A stretch of 64,000 nucleotides of DNA from the NCBI GenBank assembly GCA_964016885.1, contig OZ024741.1, positions 239,568,001 through 239,632,000 on the forward strand, written 5' to 3'. The notes beneath the pieces are model-generated. The model did no database searches. It saw only the letters and a list, made by a program, of their open reading frames with translations, and had not been told where the DNA came from. Positions 1,532 through 60,860 of the stretch are shown here, in pieces. This stretch comes from Eledone cirrhosa. Its lineage: Eukaryota. Both the position numbers and the translations under genes were made by a program. The stretch's first letter is position 1, and each line of letters opens with the position of its first letter.

Positions 1532-1990
1532 TGTATATGTCAGCATGTGTGTGTATACATATACAGAATTATGGTATATAACATTAAAAATTATTTCAAT
1601 GATAATATTTACACAAAACCTACACTACTGTATATATGTAAATGGTATTCTTGTTCAATATTTAGTATGTACTAAGACCATATAATGTCTGACTGAATGA
1701 TTCAATATTAATATATAAAAATGTGAAAATAAAATAAAAAGATAAATATGGTGATAATGAAGGATGACTGCAAATATTTTGAGAAGTGTGTTATATAAAT
1801 CTACAATCAAACATATATTCCTCTCCCTCATTGTTTCTTACAAAATTCTTGATAGCCATGTTGGTAAAGAAGACATTCAGTGAGAACTAACACGGATCTA
1901 ATATGGACACCATTACAATATTATATTTTGATGTTATAATATTAGAGGTTATTATTTTACATGACTTGATAAATAAAGAATAAAACTTAC

Positions 1991-2480
1991 ATTTATTGTG
2001 TAAAATCCTTTGTTATAAACTGAGTTGGTCCCAATGTTCTGTTGTTAATGGTTGTCTGTGTCACTGCTGCTATGGTGTGACAATGGCTTCATGTTGATGG
2101 AATAGTGTTGGTAGTGAGTCAGTGGGAACCAGCAGTTCCTCTTAGTCTTCTGTGTATGTGTGATGTTTACTGAGTGTGAGTGTGTGTGTGAGAAAGAGAG
2201 GTGAGGGAGGGTAATGCTTACTCCAGCCTCACTCAGACTAGATGTGTTTCCCCTCACAGAGAAGAGAGAGAAGACAATATCAGCTCCACTAACAGTCAGC
2301 CATAATATGTCTATATAATACTAACATGTCTGATGTAGAGAGACTGACATAGAAATAATTAGAAGTGAGAGTTTATATTAACAAAATATGGCTGATGTTA
2401 ATGTGTGTAATATAAAATGTAAATACAATATTGATAATAATAGTTAGTGTGTGTCTGACCTAATTCAAAACTAACTCATC
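1991..2480 (-). promoter_or_regulatory. Conserved promoter and non-coding first exon (~1991-2290) of a ninth Pcdh gene beyond the left edge
   Basis: Block repeated once per unit. TATATA at 2312-2317, TTAGT Inr-like motif at ~2290, conservation running to the donor AAT|GTAAGT at 1991. TSS position is inferred. Confidence 0.68.
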
Positions 2481-2863
2481 CATTCAAGATATATTTGGTA
2501 AAGTTTAAAATATATCTTCTCAAATGTTAATAATGACAGTATTTATGTATCAAGATTAAATAAATTTTCTTAATTTTTAATTGTAATTCACCATGAAACT
2601 CTCAAACTATTTCATCCAATATTTCCATTACAATTGATTTAGCTAACTACAGTGTTATAAATGGATTTTCAATATCTAAACATGTTATGTTATTCTTATT
2701 TGTATAAATCATATCAATATAAAATATATTGTATGAAACATATACGAAAATATTCAGCAATATTTCCCTTAACATTATCAAATAATTAATATAATTCTGT
2801 CATTTTGAATATTATGTGAATATTGAAGGTGATATTTCTGTTGTGTTAACTCCTCAGTCTGAC

Positions 2864-2982
2864 TTAACTAGCAACAACATCTGGTGTTGAAGGTAACTGT
2901 CTCTCTGGAGGTTTCACATATCTGTCTTGGTAATGGTCTCTCTCACTGTTGCTTGACACATCAGGTGGGACACCATAGACTC
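2864..2982 (-). CDS. Pcdh: Gene A terminal coding exon (GVYGVPPD...RQLPSTPDVVAS*)
   Basis: TTTCAG| acceptor, phase-1 compatible, TAA at 2864-2866; conserved in all units. Confidence 0.88.
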
Positions 2983-3409
2983 CTGAAACAAGTAAATCAA
3001 CTCAACTTACTACACAGTTCATATAAATACCATATATTTATAGGCTGAAATTAGTAATCAATCTTTTGTCTACTATGTTCACTACATTAAGATATAAAAT
3101 CACAATTATTAAAGAAATGTTTGACCATCCTTAATGTCCTTAGATATAATAATTTCAGTGATCGAAAGATTAGAGGTTGACTGAGAATAAAAGTCAGTTA
3201 TGTAAATGATAATAGGCCCAGAGTGTAATATATATACTCTGGTAAAGTAGAAACTATTAAACATTACATCTGTGTAGAAACATATATTCACTTATAATAA
3301 AATTTATAAAGAAAGATTGATAGAAATGATCTTATATTGTTTCACAGTTGTTGAAATTAGAAATTATGAAAATTGAATTCAAATAAATAGATAAATAAAA
3401 TTGTTTTAC

Positions 3410-3560
3410 CTGACATTGCTGGTATTTCTTCATACTGTCTACTTGACCTTTCACTCCAACACTGGCCACTACTCTTATGACTGGTCAATGTATCAGTGGG
3501 ATAGTTAGCAGATGGTCTGTTGTCTCCATAAGATGTCACCTCTATAGGTTGACTGTATTT
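3410..3560 (-). CDS. Pcdh: Gene A cytoplasmic exon (151 nt; KYSQPIEVTS...RQYEEIPAMS)
   Basis: TGCAG| acceptor and |GTAAAA donor; in frame with the large exon; conserved in all 8 units while flanking introns diverge. Confidence 0.9.
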
Positions 3561-4280
3561 CTGCAGTAAAATATAGATAGGGTGTAAAGATATATGGTAC
3601 CATTATCTAAAAAGAAAAACCCATCAATTCTACAGATGCTTCTTATCTGACATCTTTCAATTCTACACTAGAAAATGTACCAGTATACATAAGACAAAAG
3701 CAAGTGTATTGCAGATAATTATTCTATAGATCACAATTAAAGAGAAGTGCACATACCATTTTTAGACCTTTCTTTATTGGTGACAATATCAATTTACATT
3801 GTGAGTGACTTAGTATGTTTGTAATGAAATGTTAGATTCATACCAGGCAGTAAATTCAACAGATTTGTCTTAGAAAGTAAACTGGATCATACAATGAAAG
3901 CTAGATCCAAGAAGTTAGATAAGATTTTATAAATAAATGTTAGGTTAGACTTGCTGAAAAGTTATGTAGACTGTGCAATGTATGAATAAATCTACAATTC
4001 TCCTGGTGATGGACATTTAAGTGAATCACTTCCAAACAAACATTTTAGAAATATGCAAACAGCAATAAATTTTTGATAATTTCATATTTCCAAAAGGAAC
4101 AGATTACATTTTTCATCAGAACATCATAATATCATGTTTTCAATCAAAGATATTCTATATAAAAACTAATGGGAAAATAAACATTACTCTTAAATTAAAA
4201 GATTAACTATATAAGAAATAATATCCCTACTTAATTAAATATCATTTATTAACAGATAGAAAATATATAATACAGTTTAC

Positions 4281-6659
4281 CTTTGTAGATTTTTGAAGAG
4301 ATCGATTCATTGTTGATATCTTCCAGTCTTCAGGATAGTAATGGCTTCTAGACTGACTATATCTGTCTGATATCTCTCCTCGATTACCTGACATCACAGA
4401 TACACTGTTGTTACCTTGATAGATCAACTGTCTCATCTCATTACGACATTGGTATGCCTGTTTCTCTTCTGTTGTTCTAGCAGAGTTATTTCTCACATTG
4501 TTACATCTCACAATACACAATGTTATAGAAACCACAATAGCTATAGATACTATCACAGCTGCTACTACAACGATAATCAACAATGTTGCATCTATTGTGT
4601 TATCAGTTGGTACATGGACAGCTGTGAACATTGGTGATGTCTTGTTACTAACAGTCAGTGTTAAAGAGACACTAGTTGTTGCTGACAGAACTGGAGTACC
4701 ACTGTCTTTCACAACAAACTCCAGTTGATATGATCCAGCATCATTTTGGTAAACTGTGCGAGAGTAAGATAAGACACCGGTGAATGAGTCCAGTTTAAAT
4801 AACTGTCTCTCATTACCTGAGAGGATTTCATACCTGAGAAAAGCATTCATGTGACTGTCTATATCAGAGGCTTTCAGAAGTGTGATGTCATTCTTACTTT
4901 GTGGATGATAGTGGACATCAAGAGTGAAAGGGTCAACACTAGGAAATGTAAAATATGGAACATTATCATTTTTATCTAATACTTCCACTTCAACATTCAC
5001 TGTGTTATTTAGAGATGGTGTTCCATTGTCTTTAACTAAAACCTCAAAGTCATAGAAATCTCTGTGTTCTCTGTCTAAAGATTGGTTTGTTGAAATAAAG
5101 CCAGAGTTGATAATCTGGAATGGTAGATGATATTGGTGTTTATTTCTCAGATAATAACTTAATTCACCTCCCTTACCAACATCTGGGTCTGTAGCATTGA
5201 TAAAACCAATAGGGAAATTAGCTTTGTCATTCTCATAGGTAAGGAACTTGAATGTATCTTTGGTAAAGTGTGGTTTTACATCATTCACATCTAACACTTG
5301 TATTGAGAGATCTTTATCAGTTTTCAGAGAAGGTAATCCTTTATCTTGACAGGAGACAGTAAAGTGATAATGTTCCTGTGTCTCTCTGTCTACTGCTTTC
5401 TTTAGAACTATTTTATATTCCTTAGATCCCATTGACTGTAGTTTGAATGTATCATGTTTAATATCACAGCTGACCTCTCCATTGTGTCCAACATCATTAT
5501 CAGTGACCATCACATAAGCAATGAAACTACCAACTTTGATATCTTCCAGAATGGTAGCTGTGTTGTGATTCTCTGTAGAAATATAGTTGACATCAATATT
5601 TGGAGGATTGTTGTGTTGGTTGATAATATTTACAATAACAGTTGCTATGGAGCTAAGAGGAGGACTGCCATTATCTCTGGCTTCTATGAATAATTTAAAA
5701 GATTCTTCCATATCAATTTCTGAAGACTTAGCTAAATATAACTTTCCTGTATTTTCATCTAAATCAAAGTATCTTTTCATTTTCTCTGCAGTTTTCCTTG
5801 CAAAATAGAAAGATATTTTACCATTCCTGCCAATATCTAAATCATTGGCAGATAATGTCACTACTGGAATATTCTTTTTATGGTCATGTTGTATAGAGAC
5901 ATTGTAGATACTTTTGGAAAATTGTGGTTTATTATCATTTTCATCTTTTACAGATATTTTAACATTTAAAATACTTTGTTTTGGTGGAGTTCCTCCATCT
6001 TTAGCAATGACTTCAATATTGTAACTGTCTTTCTTTTCTCGGTCTAATTTATCTTCTAAAATAATACCTATTGTTGATATTTCATCAGTTTCTTTGGAAA
6101 CTGATAAAGAAAAATTTCCATTATGCTTTTTTAATTCATATGTAATTAAGCTGTTCTCATACCCCACATCTTTGTCAATGGCGCTGGGAATGGGTCTCTT
6201 CAAACCCTTACCATCTCCATCCCTGAAATACACAGTGATTTCTTTCTCAGGAAACTCAGGTTGGTGGTCATTGATGTCTTCTATTATGACTTTAATTTTT
6301 AATATCTTCATAAATGTCTTGGATTTGTGAACAGCAACTTTAATTATTTCAAAACATTCTTTCTCATAACTACACACAGACTCAGCATCCAATGTCTGTA
6401 CAGTGTACAGTTTACCAGTTTTCGTCACATTAAACAATTGTTCTCCTTTTTGTTGTAGTTGACTAAATGTAATTAAATCCTTATTCTTTAAGGAGTTATC
6501 TGATGTCTGTAAGTCAGTAGCAATGTCCCCTACATAAGTATAGGGAATACTCTCTTCTTTAACATGGTATGTGATATGTTCACTTAAATAACAGTGGAAT
6601 AAAGTCAGTAAAATACACAGAAATAACATCTCTGCTCTTGATGTTAATACAGAGTCCAT
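4281..6659 (-). CDS. Pcdh: Protocadherin gene A, large coding exon (signal peptide, EC1-EC6, TM, proximal cytoplasmic tail)
   Basis: 805-aa ORF with six cadherin repeats (DINDHQPEF, LDRE, DENDNKP, DVNDVKP, DKNDN), the EC1 C-X5-C loop (CSYEKEC) and a TM helix LLIIVVVAAVIVSIAIVVSITLCIV. Similarity among paralogues stops exactly at KSTK|GTAAA (phase-0 donor, exon end 4281). Acceptor TTTCAG| upstream at 6685. Confidence 0.96.
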
Positions 6660-6840
6660 GGAAAATGATTGCTTAAATATTCAATCTGAAACAAACAAAA
6701 ATTATTTATCATACCTCAATTAACTGTTTGTAAAATAAATATATTCAAAAATTATTTATCATATTGATGAGCTATTGTCATATTTGCATAGAGAGAAATT
6801 GTATTATACCTCAAGTAACTGTTTGTAAAATAAATATATT

Positions 6841-6930
6841 TGTTTCTACGTTTGGCACAAGGCCAGCAATTACCCAGTGCATTACTGGTACTTTATTTTA
6901 TCGACCCCGTAAGGATGAAAGGCAAAGTTA
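6841..6930 (-). mobile_element. 5'-truncated Nin/Deu-domain SINE (duplicated copy at ~13999-14088)
   Basis: 3' half of the SINE flanked by TSD AAAATAAATATATT. Confidence 0.8.
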
Positions 6931-8951
6931 AAAATAAATATATTAATCAATGAAAGTGATTGTACAAAATTTCAATATTTGTATTCTTATTTATGGATAT
7001 AAACAAGTCACAATTTTGTGGTCTTTCTATCATGACATTCGCAGTACATATGGTGTGTAGTTTCAGATAAGAAGTCTCTTGTAAACATAACATGTGTAAT
7101 TCCTAAGGTAGATTACTTTGTGTCATAAATATAAGATAGCCCTATTATGAGACAGGTGATAGCTACATCACATCAGATTTAGATGAATTTCTGCAGATTG
7201 TTTAATTAAACTTCAGTGTAGCTTATTTATATTTTATATAGGAATTGAAAATTGGTTGTAATCCAGAAAATTGTTAAAACGTAAACAACTCAGAGGGAAA
7301 CAAGTAGGAAGTTATGAATTATCTCCCTTATATATACTACAAAGTACACCTAAATTATGTTTAACAGAACAAAAATCTACAGGAATATCTAAGTCACTAT
7401 CTTTCCATTGATATTGATGTATTACTATTAATAAAGTTAGATTTCTATTTTAAACTGAAAAAAAAATATTCTAAATTGTGAACATTTATATTCAATAAAA
7501 TTATAATCTTAACATCTTGGATATAATAATAATAATTAAATTATTGTGTACAGTGCTCAGGTGCACTACAACTCATCAAGGAATTCTTTAAAACAATATC
7601 AATTACCACTTGACTCCTCTATTTACTACATAAACAGCTTCCTTATGTGTCAAAAACCACTTTTATATAACAGAGGTTCATTAGATTAAAATCTAACAAT
7701 TAGCTGAAACATTTTAATTTTACATATAAAATCCAAATATATTTTTTGCATAAATATCAAACTAATTTTAAATCATACCACCTAGTGCTAGATATATTTA
7801 CTGAGAATAAATAACTAGATAATAAGCATTTGTTTTCTATAGTTGAAAATCGTTGTAAAAGGAGGGAAAAATCTAAAACAAATTCTAAAACAAATTTTTT
7901 TATGACTTATTCTGAAGTAGAAATAAAATATTTGGTACCATCTTTTTAAGTCATACTGTTATTTAGTCATGTAGATGAATATTTTTTACATAAAACCTAC
8001 CAGATTGATGTTATTTAACCCGATGTAAGATCCTATCTAGCAGACATTATCAAAAGCATTCCAGTCAAGACCACAACCTCTATTTTTCCAAATATAGTTC
8101 CTTTGTGTTACAAAAGGAAATATATGACATCTTACAGTAGTATCGAAATAGATAACAGGCCATAATTAATATATCTATATTCTTTACAAAGATTTAAGAC
8201 TACAGATTCCTCATTTTTTACTGAATTAATGAATATTAATTTTTGTAATGTAATTGGTAATTATTCAAATATACTTCTGACATGTTACCATAAAAGTATA
8301 AAGATACATATTTTGTTGAAACAAATCATACACAAATATATGTAAGGCAAATTTGTAAATTTTAACAAGTAAAAGTAATTTATATAAAAGAAACTATTAA
8401 CACTAATTTTCACATGATATTATAGCAATCAGTAGACATATACAAAAAATAATGATTTACACACGTTCATAGATTTTACATATACACAGTTATTTCAGAT
8501 ATGAAAATACTAATATTTTATAACAAATTTTCTTATTTATAAAGAATATTTAGGTAAAACCTATATTATTGAATGTATTTCAATGATATTCTAGTTCAAT
8601 ATTTAGTATGTAATAAGACCATACAATGTCAGACTGAATAATTTAGTAAAAATATATAATGATGAGCTATGTTAAAATATGATAAACAAGATAAATATAG
8701 TAAACAAATCAAAGATGACAGCAAATATTTTCAGAAGTATGTTATATTAAACTATAATCCAACATATATTCCTCTCTCTCACTGTTTCTTACAAAATAGT
8801 TGATAGCCATGTTGGTAAAGAAGACATTCAATGAGAACTAGCACAGATCTAATATGGCCACCATTACAATATATTTTGATGTTATAATATACTATGTATG
8901 AAGTGATTATTTTACATGACTTGATAAATAATAAGCAATGATAAAACTTAC

Positions 8952-9450
8952 ATTCATTGTGTAAAATCCTTTGTTATAAACTGTGAGTTGGTCCCAATGT
9001 TCTGTTAATGGTTGTCTGTGTCACTGCTGCTATGGTGTGACAATGGCTTCATGTTGATGGAATAGTGTTGGTAGTGAGTCAGTGGGAACCAGCAGTTCCT
9101 CTCAGTCTTCTGTGTATGTGTGATGTTTACTGAGTGTGAGTGTGAGTGTGTGTGTGAGAGAGAGAGGGGTGGGGGAGGGTGATGCTTACTTCAGCCTCAC
9201 TCAGACTAGATGTGTTTCCCCTCACAGAAAAGAGGGAGAGAGAGAGAAGACACAATATCAGCTCCACTAACAGTCAGCCAAATGTCTATATAATAATATG
9301 TCTGGTGTAGAGAGACTGACATAGAAATACTTAGAAGAGAGAGGTTATATTAACAAAATATGGCTGATGTTGTTAATGTGTAATATGTAATATAAATACA
9401 AAATTAATAATAATAGTTAGTGTGTGTCTGGCTTAATTATAAACTAACTT
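8952..9450 (-). promoter_or_regulatory. Promoter and non-coding first exon (~8952-9268) of gene A
   Basis: Same cassette; |GTAAGT donor at 8952 pairs with the acceptor at 6685. Confidence 0.7.
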
Positions 9451-9563
9451 TGCCACAGAAGATATATTTCAGAAAATTTATAGATGTTATATTACCAATA
9501 TCAAATTTATTTTCTGAAATAACAAAATTTACAATATCATATATTTATTATTTATTAGCAGGG

Positions 9564-9965: not shown

Positions 9966-10084
9966 TTAACTAGCAACAACATCTGGTGTTGAAGGTAACT
10001 GTCTCTCTGGAGGTTTCACATATCTGTCTTGGTAATGGTCTCTCTCATTGTTGCTTGACACATCAGGTGGGACACCATAGATAC
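9966..10084 (-). CDS. Pcdh: Gene B terminal coding exon
   Basis: TTTCAG| acceptor, 119 nt to TAA. Confidence 0.88.
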
Positions 10085-10281
10085 CTGAAAGAAATAATTC
10101 AATTCAACTTACCACATAGTTCACATAGACAATAGATATCTTCTGACATTAATAATCCATCTCTTGTCCAAAATGAAAATTATTAAAAAGGTTCTTTTTG
10201 ACCATCCCTAAAATTCTTCAAAATTATAAACATAAATTATTATAATGATAATAATAAACATGGAAAATGAAATGTTTTTAC

Positions 10282-10432
10282 CTGACATTGCCGGTATTTC
10301 TTCATACTGTCTACTTGACCTTTCACTCCAGCACTGTCCACTACTCTTACGACTAGTCAGTGTATCAGTGGGATAGTTAGACGATGGTCTGTTGTCTCCA
10401 TAAGATGTCACCTCTATAGGCTGACTGTATTT
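10282..10432 (-). CDS. Pcdh: Gene B cytoplasmic exon (151 nt)
   Basis: CAGCAG| acceptor, |GTAAAA donor, paralogous to 3410-3560. Confidence 0.9.
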
Positions 10433-10739
10433 CTGCTGTAAAGTTAGTTAAAACAGATTGTAAAGGTATTTATAATATTGGATATGAAATGTATGCAATA
10501 TCTAGGTAAAAATCAGTACATGTTTACTGTTGAAATATGGTACAACCATCTACAAAAATATCAATTGTCTTTTACAAATGTTCCATTGATTTCACTACAT
10601 TTTTGTCAAATTTCTGCAGGACAATTCTCAAGGGGATTTCAAACTTCCAACTTAAATCCTTCCTTCCAATCCTACCACACAAAATGGATTCATTATACAT
10701 TAGTCAAAGTCTTATGTATTGCAAATAATTATTTCATAG

Positions 10740-10908
10740 CACACTGTAAGTGTGGTTGGTGTTAGCAAGGGCATTCAGCCATAGAAAACCAGCCAGAAAC
10801 ACCCCTATATGAGCGAAACACTGTCACCCAACAACTTGCCTCAAAATAGGATCCACCTAACCCATGCTAGTGTGGAAGATATACGTTAATCGATGATGAT
10901 GATGATGA
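10740..10908 (+). mobile_element. RTE LINE/SINE 3'-tail fragment (duplicated at ~17858-18026)
   Basis: GGTTGGTGTTAGCAAGGGCAT...CCCATGCTAGTGTGGAAGATATACGTTAATC(GAT)n matches the LINE 3' end. Confidence 0.75.
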
Positions 10909-11488
10909 CTTTTAATGAATAAAGGTTCACATGGTCTTTTGACCTCACCGTTAATGGTGATAATATAAATTTATATTGTGCATGAGTTTGCAGTGCAAGG
11001 TAGGAATGACAAGAGGTACAGAATTGAGGAGATTTGTCTTCTGGATAACAGGTTAGAAGAATCTGAATAGTACAAAGTAGAGAGGTTCCACAATTTTAGA
11101 CAACAACCTATTGAGAAATAAATTGCATTCTGCAATGTATGAAATGTATGCAATATCTAGATTTAAATTAGTCATGTTAACTGTTGAAATATGGTACAAC
11201 TATCACCAAAAATATCAAATGTCTTTTACAAAAATGGTGGTAGCCTTGTTAAACATTTATTTACCAACAAATAGCTTACAATTAGCAAACAGCAGTAATT
11301 CATGGATTAACTCACATTTAAAACAAACAAAATAGAATATTTATTTCTATGTCACTATTATTTCTAACAAGACATATTCTATTAAAAACTCTGGAGAAAT
11401 AAATATTAGCCTAAATTGGTAATTTAAATAGTAACAAAGAGAATAAACATTATTTAACAGCAGATAAAAGATATTGAATAGACTTTAC

Positions 11489-45653: not shown

Positions 45654-46539
45654 CTGAAACAAGTACCAAGTACATCAATTCAACTTACCACAGAGTTCAT
45701 AAAAACGATATTTACTATGATTAGATCATCAATCTATTAACTACTACACCCACCAACCTGAAATATAAATCAATAATCATTAAAGACATTGTTTTACCAT
45801 TCCTCAGAAATCATAATCAATTCAGTGATGCAATGATTTTATCCTAGATTAGATTGGTTAAATGTCAGTTCAATGAGTGATATGACTCTCTGTGCCATAT
45901 TATCATTGTCAGTTGTACATTAATTTTTTAATGTTGGCATAAATTAGATAAGACTAATATATGGTTGTATACTACAACCAAATGACTTTCCAGAAACCAA
46001 CCAAACCAGCTTTTTAAGGAACAGAGTTTCACATGTCTAATCTTTGAGTGTGTGGATATTTATGTATGCAGAATGTAAACATTCCCACCTCTGATAGTGA
46101 ATGCAAAGATAAGACAGCTGTCTAACAAATACATAGGCATAAATATGCACATATATACATCATAATAATCATTTTCATTTCATATCTGCTGTTCCAAGTT
46201 GGCATGATTTGGGAGCAGTTGTTACACACAAAGTGCATAGTTAATTGGACCTACTACCTTCCTAGATGGTTCAGTGTAACATATTTGGCTCAATTCATTC
46301 CATTGGAGCACAAACACACAAACAATGGAATTCCTTATAGATTTTATCAACCACATTCACTAATAGGGTATAGGATGGACAAAGGCTATAGTAAGAGACA
46401 CTTGCCAGAGACTAAATAGAACTCAAGTCCACATGCTTGTGAAGAATAAAGTATCAGCTAACATATAAAGTTGAATAATAAAGACATTAATAGAAATAAT
46501 GAAATTAATAACAATCATGAATGAATTAAATGTTTTTAC

Positions 46540-46690
46540 CTGACATTGCTGGTATTTCTTCATACTGTCTACTTGACCTTTCACTCCAACACTGTCCACT
46601 GCTCTTACGACTGGTCAATGTATCAGTGGGATAGTTAGAAGATGGTCTGTTGTCTCCATAAGATGTCACCTCTATTGGTTGACTGTATTT
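46540..46690 (-). CDS. Pcdh: Gene F cytoplasmic exon (151 nt)
   Basis: TAGCAG| acceptor, |GTAAAA donor. Confidence 0.9.
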
Positions 46691-47342
46691 CTGCTACCAA
46701 ATATAGTTTTTGTACATGAAATACACCCAATACCTAGATATTGATAGTTACATGAATGTTGTTAAAATATTAGACCATTGCCTACAAAAGCTTCAAGTAT
46801 CTGACCACTTTCAATCGTAACATAGAAAATGTATCCACAATAATTAAGTTATAATATATACTAATAAAGAGAGCAGCACATGCCTTTTCATGTTTCTGTA
46901 TTGTTGGTAGCGTAAGTTTATATTGTGGTGTTATAGCAATCAGGAAATTTGACTTATGAAACCATCTAAATTTTTCAAAAGATGCTATTGACAAATATTA
47001 TATTAACAAATCTACAAAGTAAGAATTTCAAGCACTAAAAATTACAAATACACCTGTGATTAATATGGTGTTGGAATTGTTAGAGATTCATTACCAAAAA
47101 ATAGCTAACAGGTAAACAGCAGTAAATCTTGGATCAGTTCACTTTTCAAAAACTAACAGAAAATATTTTTTTATTGTGACATCAAACTGGTATTTTAAGA
47201 ACTAGTGATGTTCTATACGAAACTACATCAGAATCTATACAGTAAACTACAATTGGTAATTTACAATATAGCTGTAAAATTTAAAATATTCAGCTTTATC
47301 AATCTTATTATTAACAAATATAAAATATAAAATAGATTTTAC

Positions 47343-49694: not shown

Positions 49695-51954
49695 CTCTGC
49701 TCTTGATGTTAATACAATATCCAGGAGAAATTACAGCTTCAAATATTCAATCTGAAACAAACAAAAATGATTTATCATATTGATGAGCTATTGTCATATT
49801 TGCATCTGAAAGAGAAACAAATATTAATATATTACATCTTGTCTTGCTTTTTTTCATGAAATTCTCAGATTAAATTCAACATCTTGTACTTAGGAAATAT
49901 CTGCTGTATCCTAAACATATTCAGGAAAGACAGACCAGTATGTACACTTTTCTTAAGCAGTAAACGTTTTGCTGTCTGGGACATATCGAACACAAGATTT
50001 GGCATCTGGAAGAAGGTTCATAGACTAGCCCAAGCTGTGCTATCATGATGTTTGCATATAGACACTCAATATTAATGCAGAATTCTGGGAGAGCCTTTCA
50101 GATGACCAGAACCCTGAACAGCTAACTAAAGATAGGAGAAACAAAGCTATTGGATGAAGCAGAAGAAAATTGCACAGCAGTAACAACATATAAATTAAAC
50201 ACATAGGAATGACCTAAACATCAAAACTGTTACTGCTGCAAATAACACTGTTTTAAAAAAAAAAAACAAAGAAAAAAATATTTTTAAAATCTATATAAAG
50301 CCCATTTCTTTTCTTTTCCTGAAAATAAAGAGTATTCTAAGTAAGATGATATCTAAATAATACTGGATTCAACTAACATATGTTACATCTATTTTGTGAT
50401 ATTAAAATATGGGTTCTATTTCATTGGTATCAAATTTTAAGTTTGGAAAACTATTAAAATATAGATATTACATAGGAGGACGTTTTGAGTTATCTCTCTT
50501 GAACAAGAAATGATTTAAGATATTACAGAATTTTCAACAAAATTAAAACATTTTGTAAAGATGTATAAATCAACACTATAAAGATATTAACCAAGAATAG
50601 TAATAATGCTGTCATATAAATCACCTACTGTGTATTCTGTAAAACTGAACGGAATTACAGATTGAAAATTTCTCAAGTATTACAATCTATATTAAACAGT
50701 ATTGACAAGATATATATTTACTAACTGCTATTGATATATTTAGAAATATATTCTAACCTGAATCACATTTTATATTGTTAATATTACCACTTTAATAATT
50801 CTTCTCTCAGAAATAACATAACCTGTAGTTAAAATAACGTTATAATTCTAAAATCTTGGATATCACTTTAAAAACTTTAAATTATTTAGACTGCTTTCAC
50901 ATGGTTCTTCTATTTGTTACATCAGCAACTTAAGCCTTTTTTATTTTGTTTATTTGACAAATTATAATTAAATTATGAAACAACCAATGACAATTGTTTT
51001 TTTTTTATTAAAGGGCTTCAGTGCAATAAATTCTGGAAGTATTAATCTGAATACATTAAATTTAACACTTCAGCAGAATATATATCTTGTGTTTAAATAT
51101 CAAACTAATTTTTTAGAAAGTCATCAAATTAACAGATTTCCATTTAACTGCTTTTTTACAGTTGAGAAATAAATAAAATTAAGTTAAAGCCACAATTAGT
51201 ACATAAATATTGTTCATACAGATTATGGCTACAGATTCCTTATATCTCATCTTCCTAAAGGTTATAAAACTTATAATAGAGAATTATAGAAATATCATGG
51301 ATATATTTGGCCTGTTATCTAAAATATATTAATGATTGTATATTTAAAACACTAAAGATATATCATATTTGTAAATATAATTTCAAAAATAAAATGCTGA
51401 AATCAGATTAATAGGACATATTTTCTATAGACATCAATAAACATATACACACATTATGTATATATATAACTGTGTATTTGTGTGTGGGTGTATACCCATA
51501 CAGAATTCTGTACATAATATCATAAATTATTTGATTGCCTGATATTATTTACATAAAACCTATATTACAGTATATATTTCAATGATATTTTCGTTCAATA
51601 TTTAGTATGTACTAAGACCATACAATGCATGACTGAATAATTCAGTAAAAATATATAATGATGTATTATTTGAAAATGTAATACACAAGATAAATATTGT
51701 AAATACAACAAAGATGACTGCAAATATTTTCAGAAATATATTATATAAAACTACAATTCAACATATATTCCTCTCTCTCACTGTTTCTTACAAAATACTT
51801 GATAGCCATGTTGGTAAAGAAGACATTCAATGAGAACTAACACGGATCTAATATGGCCACCATTACAATGTTATATTTTCATGTTAGAATATAGCTATAT
51901 ATGAAGTTATTATTTTACATGACTGGATAAATAATATAAAATAATAATACGTAC

Positions 51955-52445
51955 ATTCATTGTGTAAAATCCTTTGTTATAAACTGTGAGTTGGTCCCAA
52001 TGTTCTGTTGTTAATGGTTGTCTGTGTCACTGCTGCTATGGTGTGACAATGGCTTCATGTTGATGGAATAGTGTTGGTAGTGAGTCAGTGGGAACCAGCA
52101 GTTCCTCTCAGTCTTCTGTGTATGTGATGTTTACTGAGTGTGAGTGTGAGAGAGAGGTGGGGGAGGGTGATGCTTACACCAGCTTCACTCAGACTAGATG
52201 TGTTTCCCCTCACAGAGAAGAGGGAGAGAGAGAGAGAAGACACTATATCAGCTCCACTAACAGTCAGCCATAATATATTTATATAATACCAACATGTCTG
52301 ATGTAGAGAGACTGACATAGACATACTTAGAAAAGAGAGGGTATATTAACAAAATATGGTTGATGTTGTTTGTGTCTAAGCAATTTAATCTTTAAATACA
52401 ATATTGACAATAATAGTTAGTGTGTGTGACCGAATTACAAACTAT
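51955..52445 (-). promoter_or_regulatory. Promoter and non-coding first exon (~51955-52258) of gene F
   Basis: Same cassette; donor variant |GTACGT keeps the GT. Confidence 0.68.
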
Positions 52446-52891
52446 GTTATATTACAATTCTAAAATATATTTTCTCAAATGATTAAATTTTCAATATCAT
52501 GTATTTAGCTGGAAATCATTATCCATTTGTAGTAAACAGATGTTAAATAATGATGTTGATAATTAAATTTATATTTTCAGATTTAAAGATTATTTCCTGA
52601 ACATTTATTAGTATAGTACACAGATCCTTTATATAATTAATTTCCCTTAATATTATCAAGAAAAGTTTAAAGATGATACGTAATCTATGTAAAATATGTT
52701 CACATTTACAATAATGTATGAACAATTATAGAGATTTATGTTTTAATACAATTCCCCTGTAAATAGTCTTCAACATTACTATCCAAATTTAACTTATTAT
52801 TATCTTAATCTAACTAACATATTTCTTTACTTTTAAATATTGTGATAATGTTGAAGGTGATATTTCTGTTGTGTTAACTCCTCAGTCTGAC

Positions 52892-53010
52892 TTAACTGGC
52901 AACAACATCTGGTGTTGAAGGTAACTGTCTCTCTGGAGGTTTCACATATCTGTCTTGGTAATGGTCTCTCTCATTGTTGCTTGACACATCAGGTGGGACA
53001 CCATAGATTC
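52892..53010 (-). CDS. Pcdh: Gene G terminal coding exon
   Basis: TTTCAG| acceptor, 119 nt to TAA. Confidence 0.88.
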
Positions 53011-53354
53011 CTGAAACAAGTACATCAACACAACTTACCATTTAGTTCACATAGATAGACAATGATTATTTTATTGATAATAATCATCAATTGTTTATCC
53101 ACAACATCCACTGAACTAAGAGAGAAAATAACAATCATAATAGAATTCATACAAGATCATATATTTACATCTTTACAATCTTAATAAACCACTAATTAGT
53201 TAAATAAAATAATATCTTTAGTAATTTAAAATCAATATTAAATTACTTGAACTTTTTGTCTTGAATTGACAACAAACATAGTGCTTTGTTTAGGACTTAC
53301 TCTGATATGTAACACTGAGAAAGACCATAAATATTTATGAAGATATTGTTTTAC

Positions 53355-53502
53355 CTGACATTGCTGGTATTTCTTCATACTGTCTACTTGACCTTTCACT
53401 CCAACACTGTCCACTCTTATGACTGGTCAATGTATCAGTGGGATAGTTAGAAGATGGTCTGTCATCTCCATAAGATGTCACCTCTATTGGTTGACTGTAT
53501 TT
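53355..53502 (-). CDS. Pcdh: Gene G cytoplasmic exon (148 nt; one Ser codon deleted)
   Basis: Canonical boundaries; 3-nt in-frame deletion relative to paralogues. Confidence 0.89.
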
Positions 53503-53529
53503 CTGATGGAAAATATAGTTACAAGATAA

Positions 53530-53665
53530 AGTATAAAGATATCATTTATGACAATGTACCTAAAATATACTAAATGTCCTAGATATTGATAGGTACATGT
53601 ATCTATCAATATCTAGGACATTTAGTATATTTTAGGTACACTGTCGTAAATGATATTTTTATACT
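53530..53665. repeat. 136-bp near-perfect palindrome
   Basis: Two 68-bp arms, no spacer (centre TACA|TGTA), 4 transition mismatches. Confidence 0.93.
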
Positions 53666-54043
53666 CTACTGTTAAAATACTGGACCATTATCTACTAAAA
53701 CATCAATTGTATAAAACTTTCTGTATGACCACTTTCAATCATACCACAGAAAATGTATCCAGTACAGGTTCCAAATCATTATTTGCTATCATACTCCAAG
53801 GTATTTGTTTTTTAGGTCTACCTTTATTGGTGTTACATTCATATTGTGTGAGTTTAGGGTACACACTTGTAGTTATTCCAGGCCAATAATTTGGAAGGTT
53901 TCTTTATAGAAAGACAATTTACAAAACTATATGAATTCCACAATGTTAGCTAAGATCATACTGACATATAATATGACAGCTTGGCAAAAAACAATGTGAT
54001 TCAATACAGCCTTGAATTTCCTGGTATTTGGCTTTTTAGATAA

Positions 54044-54900
54044 ATGAGGGTCAGCTGAAAGGTTCATTGGCTGACTAAGATACTCTCATGGAGTGTGACC
54101 AAATGAGTTTTATTTTTCAACATTAACAGCAGATATGACATTATCACTGCGAAACTGGTTCTCAGCCAAGTGTTTTTCGTGTCAGGGAACAGATGATAAT
54201 CAGATGGGCAAAATGAGAAGAATAAGGAGGGTGATCAATTAGTTCAAAGCCAGTCATGCACAGCAGCCATTGAAACCAAGGACTTGTGTTGGAGCATTGT
54301 CCTAATAAAGCAAGACTCCTTTCATCAGATTTCCTGGGCATATGGTCTTGATAGACTTTCATAACTGCCTTAGCGAGATGGCATAATACTCTCCATTGAT
54401 GGTGTGGCTCTTTTGAAGATGGCCAATAAACATGGATTGCCAATAAACATGAATAGCCAATAAACATGGATTGTCTCTTTGTCTGACTCAAAGTGAAGAA
54501 CCCAACACTCATCCTGGGTTAGGAAACATTCAAAGAAACCAGCTGGATCTGTCTCAAATAATGTCAGATTTCCCTGTGATGTGATCAGCTTGGCGTGCTT
54601 TTGATCAGGTGTCAGAAAACATGGCACTCATCAAGCAGAATCCTTCGTCATACCAAGTTCTTTGTGTAGAATACTCTCAACTCTCACACGGGACACACTA
54701 ATAGCATTGGGTATTTGATTAATAGTCAACTGCTCTCATCCATCACCATGCAGTAAACACGATCAATGTTTTCCTCAGTTGCAGGACTTCTAGAACTCGA
54801 GTCATTTTGAAAGCTCTCCCTTCCCCACCTAAATTCAGTCGCCCACTTTTACACTGTTGATAAAGCTGGAGCATTATCCCTAATGTAGCAACCATTAATT
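54044..54900 (-). mobile_element. Decayed Tc1/mariner (mariner-type) DNA transposon in intron 2 of gene G
   Basis: Transposase remnants APALSTV.KWATEF, TEENIDRV, FLTPDQK, FLTQDECWVLHF, DHPPYS; mariner-like TIR start GAGGGTCAGCTGAAA at ~54046. Confidence 0.88.
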
Positions 54901-55142
54901 TTAACATGTAAACAAGTGTAAATTTTGATTTATCTTAGATTTCCAAAAACAGACAATATATTTTTATCTCCAGATCATAATGCTTTGTGTTTGAAGACAT
55001 TTAAATATTAAATCGAATTTATTATTAATAGTAATTTAAATCAGTAATTTAAACATTAATTTGGTGATCAAACACATTCAGTTTTATCATGCTTAATTAA
55101 ACATTATTTACTAACAGATAGAAAATATACAATAGAATTTAC

Positions 55143-57497
55143 CTTTGTGGATTTCTGAAGAGATCGGTTCATTGTTGGTGTCTTCCAGTCTTCAGCATAG
55201 TAATGACTTCTAGACTGACTATATCTGTCTGATATCTCTCCTCGATTACCTGACATCACAGATACACTGTTGTTACCTTGATAGATCAACTGTCTCATCT
55301 CATTACGACATTGGTATGCCTGTTTCTCTTCTGTTGTTCTAGCTGAGTTATTTCTTACATTGTTACATCTCACAATACACAATGTTATAGAAACCACAAT
55401 AGCTATAGATATTATCACAGCTGCTACTACAATGATAATCAACAATGTTGCATCTATTGTGTTATCAGTTGGTACATGGACAGCTGTGAACATTGGTGAT
55501 GTCTTGTTACTAACAGTCAGTGTTAAAGAGACACTAGTTGTTGCTGACAGAACTGGAGTACCACTGTCTTTCACAACAAACTCCAGTTGATATGATCCAG
55601 CATCATTTTGGTAAACTGTGCGAGAGTAAGATAAGACACCAGTGAATGAGTCCAGTTTAAATAACTGTCTCTCATTACCTGAGAGGATTTCATACCTCAG
55701 AAAAGCATTCATGTGACTGTCTAGATCAGAGGCTTTCAGAAGTGTTATGTCATTCTTACTTTGTGGATGATAGTGGACATCAAGAGTGAAAGGGTCAACA
55801 CTAGGAAATGTAAAATATGGAGCATTATCATTTTTATCTAATACTTCCACTTCAACATTCACTGTGTTATTTAGAGATGGTGTTCCATTGTCTTTGACAA
55901 AAACCTCAAAGTCATAGAAATCTCTGTGTTCTCTGTCTAAAGATTGGTTTGTTGAAATAAAGCCAGAGTTGATAATCTGGAATGGTAGACGATATTGGTG
56001 TTTATTTCTCAGATGATAACTTAATTCACCTCCCTTACCAACATCTGGGTCTGTAGCATTGATAAAACCAATAGGGAAATTAGCTTTGTCATTCTCATAG
56101 GTAAGGAACTTGAATGTATCTTTGGTAAAGTGTGGTTTTACATCATTCACATCTAAGACTTGTATTGAGAGATCTTTATCAGTTTTGAGAGGAGGTAATC
56201 CTTTATCTTGACAAGAGACAGTAAAGTGATAATGTTCCTGTGTCTCTCTGTCTACTGCTTTCTTTAGAACTATTTTATATTCCTTAGATCCCATTGACTG
56301 TAGTTTGAATGTATCATGTTTGATATTACAGCTGACCTCTCCATTGTGTCCAACATCATTGTCAGTGACCATCACATAAGCAATGAAACTACCAACTTTG
56401 ATATCTTCCAGAATGGTAGCTGTGTTGTGATTCTGTGTAGAAATATAGTTGACATCAATATTTGGAGGATTGTTTTGTTGGTTGATAACATTAACCATAA
56501 CTGTTGCTATGGCACTGAGAGGAGGAATTCCATTATCTTTAGCTTCAATATACAATTTAAAAAACTCTTCCATATCAATTTCTGAAGATTTAGCTAAATA
56601 CAACTTTCCAGTGTTTTCATCTAAATTGAAGTGTTTCTTCAGCTTTTCAACAGTTTTTCTAGCAAAATAGAAAGATATTTTACCATTCCTGCCAATATCT
56701 AAATCATTGGCAGATAATGTCACTACTGGAATATTCTTTTTATGTTTATGTTCAATAGAGACATTGTAGATACTTTGAGAGAATTGCGGTCTGTTATCAT
56801 TTTCATCTTCTACAGATATTTTAACATTTAAAATACTTTGTTTTGGTGGAGTTCCTCCATCTTTAGCGATGACTTCAATATTGTAGCTGTCTTTCTTTTC
56901 CCTGTCTAATTTACCATCTAAGATTATTTCTAATGTTGATATTCCATCAGTTTGTTTGGAAACTGATAAAGAAAAATATTCATTATGCTTGTTTAATGCA
57001 TATGTAATTAAGCTGTTCTCATATCCAACATCTTTGTCAATAGCACTGGGAATGGGTCTCTTCAAACCTTTCCCATCTCCATCCCTGAAATATAGAGTGA
57101 TGTCTTTCTGAAGAAACTCAGGTTGGTGGTCATTGATGTCTTCTATTATGACTTTAATTTTTAATATCTTCATAAATGTCTTGAATTTGTGAACAGCAAC
57201 TTTAACTATTTCAAAACATTCTTTCTCATAACTACACACAGACTCAGCATCCAATGTCTGAACAGTGTACAGTTTACCTGTTTTCGTCACATTGAACAAT
57301 TGTTCTCCCTTTTGTTGTAGTTGACTAAATGTAATTAAATCCTTATTCTTTAAGAAGGAGCTATCTGATGTCTGTAAGTCAGTAGCAATGTCCCCTATAT
57401 ATGTATAGGGATTACTCTCTTCTTTAACATGGTATATAATATGTTCACTCAGATAACAGTGGAAGAAAGTCAGTAAAATACACAGAAATAATAACAT
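55143..57497 (-). CDS. Pcdh: Protocadherin gene G, large coding exon
   Basis: 797-aa ORF; donor at 55143; acceptor TTGCAG| at 57554. Confidence 0.96.
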
Positions 57498-58389
57498 CTC
57501 TGCTCTTGATGTTAATACAATATCCAGGAGAAATTACAGCTTCAAATATTCAATCTGCAACAGAAACAATTTCAATATATTAACGGTGTCTCATATTAAG
57601 TCTTGCTTTTTTTCATGAACTACTTATTGATTAAACTTAACATCTTGTACTTCAGAAATATCAGCTGTATCCTTAATATATTCCGGAAAGACAGAGTGAC
57701 AATTGCAGTGATTCTCTCCTGCACTGAACAGTATGTACATCTTTCTCAAGCAGTGATGGTTGTGCTGTCTGGGCCACATCCAAAACATGATGAGCTTGTA
57801 TCTGAGAGAAGGCTCATTGACCAGTCCAACCTATTTTATAATGTCTGCATGAGAAACATATAGACACTCAATATTTTGGGAGAGAATTTCAGATGACCAG
57901 AACCTTGAAAGAGGTAACTGAAAATAGCTATCGGACGATGCCGAAGAAAGTAGCACAGCAGTAACAACAGATGAATTAACACACATAGATATGATCTATG
58001 CATCGAAAACTGTCACTGCTGCATTAGATTTTTCGGCTACAACCAGCACTGCTTTTAAAGAAAAAAGTTTTTTTTATTAAATCTATATAAATGACGTCTT
58101 TTTATTTTTTTTTTTTTATAAAGAATATTTTAAGTAAGATGATATCTAAGTAATACTAGATTCAACTAACATATATTACTTCTATTTTATATGATATTAA
58201 AATATAAGTTCCATCTAATTGGTAACATATTTTAATGGGAAATATTAAATTGGGAAAGTATTAAAATACATTGCATTGGATGACGTTTTGAGTTATCTCT
58301 CTTGAACACGAAATAATTTCAAATATTACACAATTTTCAACAAAACAAACATCTTATAAAGGTAATCACAACAAAGATGTTAACGAATA

Positions 58390-58950
58390 ACAATAATTGT
58401 TTCTACGTTAGGCACAAAGCCAGCAATTTTCCCAGTGTATTATTGGTACTTTATTTTATCGACCCCGTAAGGATGAAAGGCAAAGTTAATCTCGGTGGGA
58501 TTTGAACTCAGAATGGAAAGGGCCGTAACTCTATGGGTCAAAGCACGGCGTCTGACCCTCTGCCGATACTGCCAATCCACTGAATAATAATTGTTTCTAC
58601 TTTAGGCACAAGGCCAGCAATTACCCGGTGCATTACTGGTACTTTATTTTATCGACCCCGTAAGGATGAAAGGCAAAGTCAACCTCAGCGGGATTTGAAC
58701 TCAGATCGTAAAGGGACGTAACTATGCTGGAAAGCATGGCGTCCGACCCTCTACCGATACTGCTGAAAAATAATTGTTTCTACTTTAGGCACAAGGCCAG
58801 CAATTACCCAGTACATTACTGGTACTTTATTTTATCGACCCCATAAGGATAAAAGGCAAAGTTAACCTCGACGGGATTTGAACTCAGACCGTAAAGGGAC
58901 GTAACTATGCTAGAAAGCATGGCGTCCAACTCTCCACCGATACTACCAAT
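58390..58950 (-). mobile_element. Three head-to-tail Nin/Deu-domain SINEs
   Basis: Three ~185-bp copies, each beginning AATAATTGTTTCTAC on the plus strand. Confidence 0.88.
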
Positions 58951-60375
58951 TCGTGATGTTAGTCACCAATCTATATTAAACAGTATTTACAAGATATTTA
59001 TTTACTAACTGATATTGATATATTCAGAGCCCGCTCAGGTAGATTGACCTTCGATGATGATGATGATGATTGTTAACATATTTCATTATAATCTGTCATT
59101 CAAGTAAAGTTATAATATTAACATCTTGGATGTCACCTTAAAAGCAGTAAATTATTTAGACTGCATTACCTACATGATTCTTTTATTTGTTATAGAAGCA
59201 GCTTGAAGCTTTTTTTCGTTTTGTTTATTTCCATAAGGTATAATTAGAATATGAAATAAGAGATCATCCTTTTTTTATTATAGGACTTCATTGTAATAAA
59301 TTGTGACAGTATTAATCTGAATATATTAAATTTAACACTTTAACACATTTTCATTTAACTGTTTTCTACAGTTGAGAAATAAATAAAATCAAGTTAAAAG
59401 AAAATCTGAATCAAATACTTCATGAATTTCTTTGTCTAGTTACTTTTGAAATATCCAGGTGAATATTTCTGACATAAGATTTGCTCCACTGTGATTTAAA
59501 ACTATGTAATCTACTCTCCAGCAGACATTTTTCAAAAGTATTTCAGCCACAACTATCCATAAGCAGCTAGTTGCTTCATGTTACAAAACAAAATATGTGA
59601 CAGATTGAATATTTCTGTATTAATAGCTAGCAAGCCACAATTAGTACATAAATATTGTTCATACAGATCATGGCTACAGATTCCTTATATCTCATCTTCC
59701 TAAATGTTACAAAAATTTATAATAGGGAATTATAGAAATATCATGGATATATTAGGCCTGTTATCAAAAATATATTAATGATTGTATATTTAAAACACTA
59801 AAGATATGTCATATTTGTAAATATAATTTCAAATTTTCAATTCAAAGAAATCAAATTAAAATATATTTTCTATAGGCATCAATAAACATATACACACACT
59901 GTGTATATAACTGTGTGTGTATTCCCATATAGAAATATGCATATAATGTTATAAAAAATTATTTGATTGTTTGATATTATTTATATAAATCCTATACTAC
60001 TGTATAGATATCAAATATATTCTACTTCAATAGTTAGTATTTACTAAGAGCATATAATGTTTGACTGAATAATTCAGTAAAAATATATAATGATGAATTA
60101 TGTTAAAGTTTAATAAACAAGATAAATATAGTAAATATGACTGCAAATATTTTGAGAAATATATTATATAACTACAATTGAACATACATTCCTCTCCCTC
60201 ACTGTTTCTTATAAAATACTTGATAGCCATGTTGGTAAAGAAGACATTCAATGAGAACTAACACAGATTCAATATGGCCACCATTACAATATTATATTTT
60301 CATGTTATAATACAGCTATATTTGAGGTTATTATTTTACATGACTGGATAAATAATATAGAATAATAAAACTTAC

Positions 60376-60860
60376 ATTCATTGTGTAAAATCCTTTGTTA
60401 TAAATTGTGAGTTGGTCCCAATGTTCTGTTGTAAATGGTTGTCTGTGTCACTGCTGCTATGGTGTGACAATGGCTTCATGTTGATGGAATAGTGTTGGTA
60501 GTGAGACAGAGGGAACCAGCAGTTCCTCTCAGTCTTCAATGTGTATGTGTGATGTTTACTGAATGTGAGGGGTGGGGGAGGGTGATGCTTACTCCAGCTT
60601 CACTCAGACTAGATGTGTTTCCCCTCACAGAGAAGAGGGAGAGAGAAAGAAGACACAATATCTGCTCTACTAACAGTCAGCCATAATATGTCTATATAAT
60701 ACCAACATGTCTGATGTAGAGAGACTGACACAGAAATACTTAGAAGAGAGAGATTAATATTTACAAAATATGGCTGATGTTAAAGTGTGTGTAATTTAAA
60801 ATGTATTTAAAATATTGACAATAATAGTTAGTGTGTATTTGACCTAATTACAAACTAAAT
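60376..60860 (-). promoter_or_regulatory. Promoter and non-coding first exon (~60376-60671) of gene G
   Basis: Same cassette with |GTAAGT donor. Confidence 0.7.

Follow-up and report, generated by a model that had tools for sequence, protein, structure and literature searches.

Eight copies of a 5′ module with a spliced non-coding first exon and candidate YY1 sites in an octopus-type protocadherin array of Eledone cirrhosa

Cephalopod genomes contain 150-300 tandem protocadherins, whose regulation is named as an untested question in a review (PMC10658181). In the coleoid sub-arrays, as described in PMC9068888 and PMC6339937, complete multi-exon genes are arranged head to tail, and PMC9068888 attributes the arrays to whole-gene duplication and gene conversion. 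According to published single-cell data, about 19-21 PCDH genes are expressed per cell, some broadly and others enriched in particular cell types (PMC9712504), counts that are limited by the near-identical 3′ ends of the genes.

The window analyzed here comprises 64,000 nucleotides of the E. cirrhosa assembly GCA_964016885.1 (contig OZ024741.1, 239,568,001 to 239,632,000; coordinates below are those of the window). It contains a head-to-tail octopus-type protocadherin gene array, all on the minus strand, in which every unit is a complete four-exon gene that has exons 3 and 4 to itself (8 of 8 units) and no constant exons are shared. Gene A is composed of a non-coding exon 1 (8952..9268), an intron 1 of 2266 nt (6686..8951, GT..AG), exon 2 (4281..6685, ATG at 6629), which encodes the signal peptide, six cadherin repeats, the TM and part of the tail, and exons 3 and 4 (2864..3563; exon 3 ends at 3410, exon 4 starts at 2982, and the stop codon ends at 2864). 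At higher coordinates lie gene B (9966..16376; exon 2, 13893-11489), gene C (17074..24096; exon 2, 20992-18584), gene D (24695..34171; exon 2, 30883-28475), gene E (34592..45019; exon 2, 38303-35892, intron 1 of 6406 nt), gene F (45535..52258; exon 2, 49751-47343), gene G (52892..60671; exon 2, 57554-55143) and the 3′ part of gene H (61121..64000), the 5′ end of which lies beyond the right edge. The seven intact exon 2 reading frames are 783-785 codons long, and the 783-residue product matches Pfam Cadherin_2 plus five Cadherin stretches. With a single large exon that holds six cadherin repeats, the TM and part of the tail, the locus has the organization of a cephalopod clustered protocadherin array; its nearest protein relatives are protocadherins of Octopus sinensis and Argonauta (82-89% identity). 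The paralogues differ mainly in EC2, with an amino-acid distance of 0.234, compared to 0.062 for EC1 and 0.026-0.027 for EC6, the TM and the tail.

A sequence-only reading of this DNA had described a non-coding block that recurs once per gene unit. A blastn search of the window with copy 1 as query bore this out, yielding eight minus-strand copies with 84-88% identity over 730-950 nt. Copy 1 (1600..2520) has TATATA at 2317, its predicted start at 2290 and its donor after 1991, and belongs to a gene that lies past the left window edge; copy 2 (8545..9480, located by blastn and RNA contigs) forms the 5′ end of gene A. The others belong to gene B (copy 3, a near-twin of copy 2, 15652..16588; TATATA 16400, exon 16376-16063), gene C (copy 4, 23389..24305; TATATA 24123, exon 24096-23787), gene D (copy 5, 33663..34379; TATATA 34198, exon 34171-33858), gene E (copy 6, 44312..45245; TATATA 45046, exon 45019-44710), gene F (copy 7, 51540..52472; TATATAAA 52285, exon 52258-51955) and gene G (copy 8, 59972..60893; TATATA 60698, exon 60671-60376). 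As had been claimed, TATATA precedes TTAGT in all eight copies, the distance from its first T to the A of TTAGT being 27 nt in six copies and 24 nt in copies 2 and 3; in gene A the predicted core promoter spans 9266..9292 (first T at 9292, TTAGT A at 9268). Only copy 7 matches TATAWAWR, and the other seven miss this consensus. The exon ends 296-317 nt from the TTAGT A, at a GTAAGT donor in seven copies and at GTACGT in copy 7, which also reads AACCAT at its upstream YY1-like site. The TATATA/TTAGT pair is the probable core promoter of each gene, as predicted from these motifs.

The RNA data comprise assembled contigs of four runs from related species rather than from the source genome, and carry neither strand nor ends. 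A contig of run X1 joins the donor at 8952 exactly to the large-exon acceptor at 6685, at the predicted GT/AG; the contig joint itself is given as 6665/8952, with 20 letters between that start like exon 2. The joint occurs in at least one of the four runs among the 15 joints listed, and its exon 1 side is 30 letters long, one below the 31-letter rule. The joints between coding exons 3 and 4 likewise have 30 letters on their short side. The exon 1 core is RNA-covered in all four runs (depth at 9002: 143, 546, 68 and 180), as is the bin 8879-9115, and the cover stops at the donor: the adjoining bin over the intron island (8642-8878) has zero cover in all four. The block is thus the 5′ end of the downstream gene and holds a spliced first exon. 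The proposal that it combines a promoter and an exon therefore stands as regards the exon, spliced from 8952 to 6685, but less firmly as regards the start site, since contigs cross the TATA in three of the four runs; accordingly, only the 3′ end of exon 1 is fixed by RNA, and its 5′ end is a prediction.

Exon 1 contains two upstream ORFs. The first (9005..9052, minus strand) has 15 codons in a CAAC-ATG context, and its start is present in all eight copies, with one substitution in copy 4 and a lost stop in copy 8, which extends it to 33 codons. The second starts with an ATG 6 nt before the donor (8952..8957, minus strand; seven of eight copies) and has its stop in exon 2, giving 8 codons in the main-ORF frame in genes C-G and 15 codons out of that frame in genes A and B. 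A coding N-terminal extension in exon 1 was rejected, as in-frame stops occur in all seven genes. A comparison of three non-coding stretches with 159 proteins gave no match beyond E 0.02, and a 24-nt exon 1 pattern had no match among metagenome contigs. Neither trans-splicing nor an acceptor inside the pyrimidine tracts was supported by the loose contig ends listed, of which the one at 9106 is diverged homologous sequence.

The block had also been described as far more conserved than the adjacent introns. Mean p-distances between copies, computed without the recent pair 2/3, are 0.104 for the promoter (-100..+35), 0.043 for the exon core and 0.069 for the intron island, compared to 0.35-0.48 for other segments of the introns and 3′ flanks and 0.51-0.63 for shuffled controls. 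The contrast with the introns is therefore real, but the copies are no more alike in the block than at four-fold coding sites (0.097). The coding region is itself a mosaic (incompatibility of neighboring informative sites 0.384 versus 0.577 when permuted; 0 of 300 permutations), and block distances are uncorrelated with flank distances (Spearman coefficients between -0.25 and 0.07 across promoter, exon and island). For example, copies 3 and 7 differ by 0.009 in the island and by 0.28 and 0.34 in the flanks, and copies 1 and 4 by 0.048 in the upstream flank and 0.074 in the exon. In contrast, the initial 80 nt of intron 1 do track the upstream flank (Spearman 0.53). Because synonymous sites are equally alike, the coding region is mosaic and the flanks are uncorrelated, the likeness of the blocks is weak proof of selection, and it is probably due largely to gene conversion.

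The observation that the blocks contain no CTCF-like motif was upheld: the CTCF consensus, scanned as such rather than as a matrix or an octopus-derived motif, matches none of the blocks even with three mismatches allowed, and in the whole window its matches are at chance level (4 versus 5.35; 59 versus 58.7). CGCT is present once among the blocks, in copy 6. The observed/expected CpG ratio is 0.009 in exon 1, 0.043 in the blocks (7 CpG in 6085 nt, of which all eight first exons contain 1) and 0.11 in the coding exon, so that the promoter is not alone in its CpG poverty; by the vertebrate criterion, none of the eight blocks is a CpG-rich, methylation-switchable promoter. The evidence suggests that this sub-array offers no target for a vertebrate CTCF/methylation switch.

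The reading we prefer, with a probability of roughly 0.6, is that each complete gene carries one promoter and leader, that these are homogenized, and that the paralogues are co-regulated and differ mainly in EC2. The block would be a 5′ module with a probable TATA/Inr-type promoter, a non-coding first exon of about 300 nt with its two upstream ORFs, spliced to the large coding exon, and a putative cluster of cis-elements in the intron 1 island, with YY1 as a candidate factor. Whole-gene duplication would have copied this module each time; gene conversion or unequal exchange would keep it near-identical, the segment having first been held by purifying selection, and would likewise have homogenized EC1, EC4-6 and the tail while EC2 was left diverging. 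Near-identical promoters should answer to the same factors, and so, judging from the sequence, the paralogues are most probably regulated together within shared cell classes. Differences between them would reflect position, noise and read-through, and not a switch based on CTCF and methylation, for which the sequence offers no basis. A stochastic system, however, would require identical promoters just as much.

The contigs that cross the TATA bear on two alternatives. In three of the four runs contigs cover the TATA and the bases upstream of it (bin 9353-9560: 37.3, 4.84, 0.26 and 0), and one X6 contig spans 9226-9369; in X1 the depth across and upstream of the TATA is 49, whereas the exon core reaches 143 and the spliced contig 56. 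Because of this cover, and because the upstream stop codon lies 391-671 nt before the next TATA, read-through or a start further upstream could be at work. Under read-through with promoter occlusion, the 3′ end of each gene would overrun the next promoter, and array position rather than an enhancer would set expression; the upstream transcript would sometimes splice on from exon 1, and neighbors would interfere. This seems unlikely: AATAAA/ATTAAA signals occupy no conserved position, and PCDH gene fusions from read-through transcripts needed correcting in PMC9712504, but each 3′ flank has at least one such signal, and contigs lacking strand and ends would give the same cover with antisense RNA or with a start further upstream. 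The 3′ flank bin 2480-2716 is empty in all four runs, which is uninformative because the runs come from other species, to which a diverged flank cannot be aligned.

We consider it similarly unlikely that the true start is displaced upstream by 100-250 nt, placing TATATA/TTAGT inside a longer first exon. Such a start would explain the upstream RNA, and it fits the conservation (0.22) that persists for about 180 nt upstream of the TATA, the non-canonical TATA with its short spacing (-27, -24) and an initiator-like TCAGTY word at about -55 in six of eight copies. The depth upstream of the TATA, however, is 1-26% of that in the exon core, conservation is highest from -100 downwards, as in a proximal promoter, and TATATA and TTAGT are invariant and correctly ordered in all eight copies.

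Less probable still is that equivalent promoters compete for a shared enhancer via YY1, giving stochastic isoform choice without CTCF, as the sequence-only reading had proposed. Its motif observations are accurate. Three AANATGGC-type sites are expected per block, and 22 of the 24 positions are filled, these being 22 of the 26 matches in the window; the sites noted at 2383-2394 and around 8805-8860 lie at 2385 and at 8806-8813 and 8851-8858. The two misses (the upstream site of copy 7 and the first intron site of copy 1) alter the G beside CCAT, and CCATnTT is unbroken at all 24 sites. As had been said, the sites fit the YY1 consensus GCCATnTT (PMC2743690), again in 22 of 24 cases, which makes YY1 the best-matching candidate factor. 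In gene A, site 1 (9357..9364, minus strand) precedes the predicted start by about 100 nt and is present in seven of eight copies. The other two sites are oppositely oriented within the conserved intron 1 island (8757..8882, minus strand), like the YY1-bound first-intron cluster of PMC2743690, and five of eight copies have a weaker GCCATAnT form between the TATA and TTAGT. EC2-centered diversity resembles the vertebrate specificity domains (PMC4978886), and similar long-range processes are anticipated for cephalopods (PMC10658181).

Against this, none of 5000 shuffles had three AANATGGC in one block, but some non-simple gapped 7-mer occurs three times in 96.5-98% of 200 shuffles, so that the choice of motif is post hoc, and the eight copies represent one ancestral event rather than eight independent ones. 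Of the 21 specified motif columns 2 vary, versus 19-34% in the surrounding segments, a comparison limited by too few columns and non-independent copies. The longer motif, in which a G follows, is absent, copy 7 has AACCATnTT, which served PMC2743690 as a low-affinity mutant, and the 19-21 PCDH genes per cell include cell-type-enriched ones (PMC9712504). A literature search found no paper on cephalopod YY1, PMC5291267 and PMC12513265 being without such content. Enhancer competition and stochastic choice have no support in this analysis. Nor would YY1 represent a wholly different mechanism from that of vertebrates, because it bound human Pcdh-alpha promoters in vitro (PMC3333863). An independently evolved octopus neuronal barcode, in which promoters held interchangeable by gene conversion and diversity in EC2 alone would let single neurons express random subsets of paralogues via YY1 sites and read-through occlusion, is doubtful to a like degree; the sites would flank the first exon and read-through from each gene would occlude its downstream neighbor, free of CTCF and methylation.

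A structured-RNA role for the intron island, as an intronic snoRNA, a pre-miRNA or an editing partner, is very improbable. Its two motifs are inverted repeats and, with one copy excepted, could form a stem of 10 bp, but the fold z-score is unremarkable (+0.45), compensatory changes affect 0 of 49 island and 0 of 59 exon 1 pairs, three Rfam matches lie far under threshold with no family assigned, and the island has no RNA cover in any of the four runs. That the block is solely the 3′ UTR of the upstream gene, without a junction, is hardly credible and largely refuted, despite the nearby upstream stop and the RNA above the TATA, by the exact splice into the coding exon of the next gene, the donor in all eight copies and the cover that ends there.

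In the literature searched, these are the first concrete handles on the regulation of such arrays: a first exon and its junction, a candidate start, three candidate factor sites and two upstream ORFs. They come with two warnings, namely that likeness between copies is no proof of selection, and that 3′-end single-cell counts and short reads cannot separate paralogues whose tail exons differ by 2-4%. Stochastic choice, if true, would make this a convergent barcode that works by a new mechanism; otherwise, this is an ordinary duplicated promoter.

Compared with known systems, the array departs from the published coleoid gene model in one respect: the authors' reply in PMC9712504 names the large exon as the first exon, whereas in this array it is preceded by a non-coding exon that carries two upstream ORFs. 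The array resembles vertebrate clustered protocadherins in having one promoter per ectodomain exon with a conserved upstream element (PMC7811963; 10.1101/360206), in its divergence in EC2(-3) with the remainder converted, and in the YY1 site reported at the alpha promoters (PMC3333863), for which candidate sites are the counterpart here. It differs in lacking a CTCF/CGCT element, in its near absence of CpG, its TATA-like core, its spliced non-coding leader and its lack of shared constant exons; conservation extends over about 900 nt rather than a short motif, and the two systems are not orthologous. The closest vertebrate layout is that of the Pcdh-beta genes, which are not known to have shared exons.

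The first-intron cluster of the YY1 gene (PMC2743690) likewise has GCCATnTT sites within a conserved island where intron 1 begins, with the outer sites opposed. Its spacers are not conserved and binding was shown by ChIP, whereas here the sites are candidates and the whole island is conserved, so that the motifs do not stand out. The tandem 5′ cassettes of chelicerate sDscam (PMC4835542) are a further case of invertebrate neuronal receptor diversity with tandem promoters; those cassettes splice to shared 3′ exons, whereas in the present array every gene is complete.

The window has a G+C content of 32% and contains eight long ORFs, all on the minus strand, which correspond to genes A-H, a head-to-tail array of octopus-type protocadherin genes. 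Genes A-G are complete, and gene H is truncated by the window edge. In each gene, a large exon (783-785 codons, up to a GT donor) is followed by exon 3, which is short, and exon 4, which carries the stop. Gene A exon 2 (6685-4281) encodes one Cadherin_2 domain and five stretches of Cadherin type; among the best 120 of the 3484 matches to its product (7998 candidates scored) are protocadherins of Octopus sinensis (86-89%), Argonauta hians (82-84%), O. vulgaris and O. bimaculoides. The layout is that of coleoid sub-arrays, known from the available text of PMC9068888 and PMC6339937 as complete head-to-tail genes, duplicated and then homogenised by conversion.

Several local features were also observed. 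The latest duplication (4035-10442 versus 11266-17560) extends from intron 2 of one gene across the cassette to exons 3-4 of the next; its breakpoints thus fall within genes and create chimeric units. The O. sinensis isoform models P0028, P0150-P0152 and P0154 combine a single large exon with exon 3 in three forms, and fusions of adjoining genes are found in several models; these could be mis-mapping between near-identical exons or true cross-unit splicing. In some units the exon 3 acceptor is a tandem CAGCAG (e.g., near 10435 and 61760), in agreement with database isoforms having or missing one Gln. Exon 4 of gene E (34592-34698) is four codons shorter than that of the other genes. Insertions of higher G+C occupy gene D intron 3 (25300-27500), with a broken fragment of a reverse transcriptase plus PHD finger at 26168-26629, and gene E intron 1 (39000-44200), whose three ORFs gave no Pfam match. 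Copies of a short interspersed repeat, in which the RNA runs are very rich, lie at 21-240, 682-856, 6836-6931, 13994-14089, 21881-22148, 39292-39431 and 58392-58970.

Between one gene's stop and the following gene's large exon lies the conserved non-coding cassette, present once per unit in eight copies (84-88% identity in a blastn-type match), as the sequence-only reading had described. Alignment and motif scans bear out its proposed order: TATATA, TTAGT 24-27 nt below, a segment of 296-317 nt and a donor, GTAAGT in seven of eight copies and GTACGT in copy 7. The three YY1-like motifs claimed per block are likewise present, AANATGGC occurring at 22 of 24 expected positions (the blocks contain 22 of the window's 26 matches) and the CCATnTT core being unbroken at all 24. 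Three such motifs in one block were found in 0 of 5000 shuffles; some non-simple gapped 7-mer occurred three times in 96.5-98% of 200 shuffles, so that the significance of the motif depends on the prior choice of YY1. The reported lack of CTCF motifs also held: a scan with a CTCF consensus gave no match at ≤3 mismatches in any of the eight blocks, and a chance number across the whole window. On the minus strand of exon 1, 9075-9088 carries what we take to be an AP-1 word, TGACTCA (7/8 copies), adjoining a presumably Su(H)-like TTCCCAC (6/8).

Transcript evidence came from four public runs of assembled contigs from related organisms, aligned on 2480-9560 at 82% likeness; one is recorded as RNA, and the RNA nature of the other three is guessed. 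In run X1, a contig of depth 56 links 6665 with 8952, and the 20 letters separating them start like exon 2, which places the joint at the predicted acceptor (6685) and donor (8952) of gene A intron 1. On the side of exon 1 the joint has 30 letters, one under the bridging rule; the exon 3-4 joints likewise have 30 letters, yet database proteins confirm them. Among the 15 joints listed, out of 71, the exon 1-2 joint appears in X1 only. The core of exon 1 (9268-8952, 5' end predicted) is covered in all four runs, and the conserved island of intron 1 (8757-8882) in none. The block therefore forms the 5' portion of the gene downstream. That it is solely a 3' UTR, the case raised against the promoter proposal, is largely refuted by the joint to the downstream exon 2 and by RNA covering the exon and not the island.

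Leaders built by in-silico splicing of exon 1 to exon 2 measure 355-373 nt and contain two upstream ORFs each, neither of which joins the main frame. The first (15 codons, CAAC-ATG context) lies inside the block's most conserved stretch (9005-9052 and equivalents), with a single substitution in copy 4 and its stop missing in copy 8; the second starts 6 nt ahead of the donor (8952-8957 and equivalents). Genes A and B have an additional ATG in frame, 30 nt upstream of the usual one. Exon 1 contains one CpG in all eight copies summed (o/e 0.009, compared with 0.11 in the coding exon and 0.40 in transposon-rich DNA); octopus promoters show scant methylation in the available part of PMC9476566. Fold, covariation and Rfam tests of RNA structure yielded nothing that stood out.

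The first exon of the proposed promoter-plus-exon unit is thus supported by splicing, whereas the predicted start is less secure, as contigs reaching it run on upstream. Depth at 9268 is 49, 26, 3 and 0 in the four runs, and that of the bin above the TATA 37, 5, 0.3 and 0; a single X6 contig covers 9226-9369, across the start. Since assembled contigs carry neither strand nor end information, this RNA has three readings. It may come from the 3' end of the upstream gene, whose stop lies 391-671 nt off, from a transcription start further upstream than TATA/TTAGT, or from the antisense strand. PCDH fusions from read-through transcripts needed correcting according to PMC9712504. For the array as a whole, near-identical promoters would predict co-regulated paralogues, and co-regulated duplicated promoters are our preferred interpretation (probability about 0.6). 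Read-through and an upstream start are each unlikely, and both partly overlap with it.

The block had been described as far more conserved than the introns. Pairwise distances agree (0.04-0.10 versus 0.35-0.48), but four-fold coding sites are equally low (0.097). The coding region is a mosaic (incompatibility 0.384 versus 0.577 permuted; 0/300 permutations). EC2 (exon 2 codons 124-234, genes A-G) has a four-fold distance of 0.25 and an amino-acid distance of 0.23 (range 0.05-0.31), the corresponding values being 0.08 and 0.06 for EC1, 0.10 and 0.08 for EC3-5 pooled, and 0.06 and 0.03 for EC6/TM/tail. The diverged introns and EC2 indicate that the paralogues are old, and the low distances elsewhere that neighbours overwrite most of each gene. 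The block behaves the same way, its distances not tracking those of its flanks (28 pairs). A 900-nt non-coding island would persist only where selection had held it first; its present identity probably overstates constraint, and the YY1-like words would not be distinguishable by identity. Variable columns number 2 of 21 in the motifs, versus 19-34% in surrounding sequence. Restriction of diversity mostly to EC2, with EC1 homogenised, resembles vertebrate EC2-3 specificity, where EC2-3 escape conversion (PMC4978886, available text); by analogy, this suggests that EC2 encodes octopus binding specificity.

In the mechanism we propose, the promoter would lie at the TATA, a putative cis-element in intron 1, and the upstream ORFs would damp translation. 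YY1 is a fair candidate factor, judged from the motifs: the sites match GCCATnTT, given in the accessible part of PMC2743690 as the YY1 consensus, the intron 1 pair is inverted, as are sites in intron 1 of the YY1 gene itself, and the upstream site of copy 7 has the form described there as low-affinity. YY1 was also observed in vitro at human Pcdh-alpha promoters (PMC3333863, in part). Competition between equivalent promoters via YY1, giving stochastic choice, is nevertheless quite improbable. Octopus cells express ~19 PCDH genes each, of which some are broad and others enriched in particular cell types (PMC9712504), and the picture in squid is similar (PMC12240821), in the portions available; these counts rest on 3' reads, which blend paralogues whose last exons differ by an inseparable 2-4%, and so decide neither for nor against such choice. 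CTCF motifs mark squid domain borders (PMC9023564, available text), so cohesin or CTCF could, by analogy, act from beyond the window.

The regulation of cephalopod protocadherin clusters is counted as an open question in the accessible text of PMC10658181. No description of a cephalopod protocadherin promoter or leader was found in the literature searched, subscription papers (Albertin 2015; Wang and Ragsdale 2017) aside, and public annotations may already include exon 1. The cassette is real and, as far as searched, undescribed, and its mechanism an unproven proposal. Its mode of action resembles that of promoters serving single genes within a tandem family, and it is set apart from the vertebrate CSE/CTCF system, as outlined in the available parts of PMC7811963, 10.1101/360206 and PMC4978886, by lacking three features that define the latter: a CTCF site per promoter, a CpG-rich promoter and shared constant exons.
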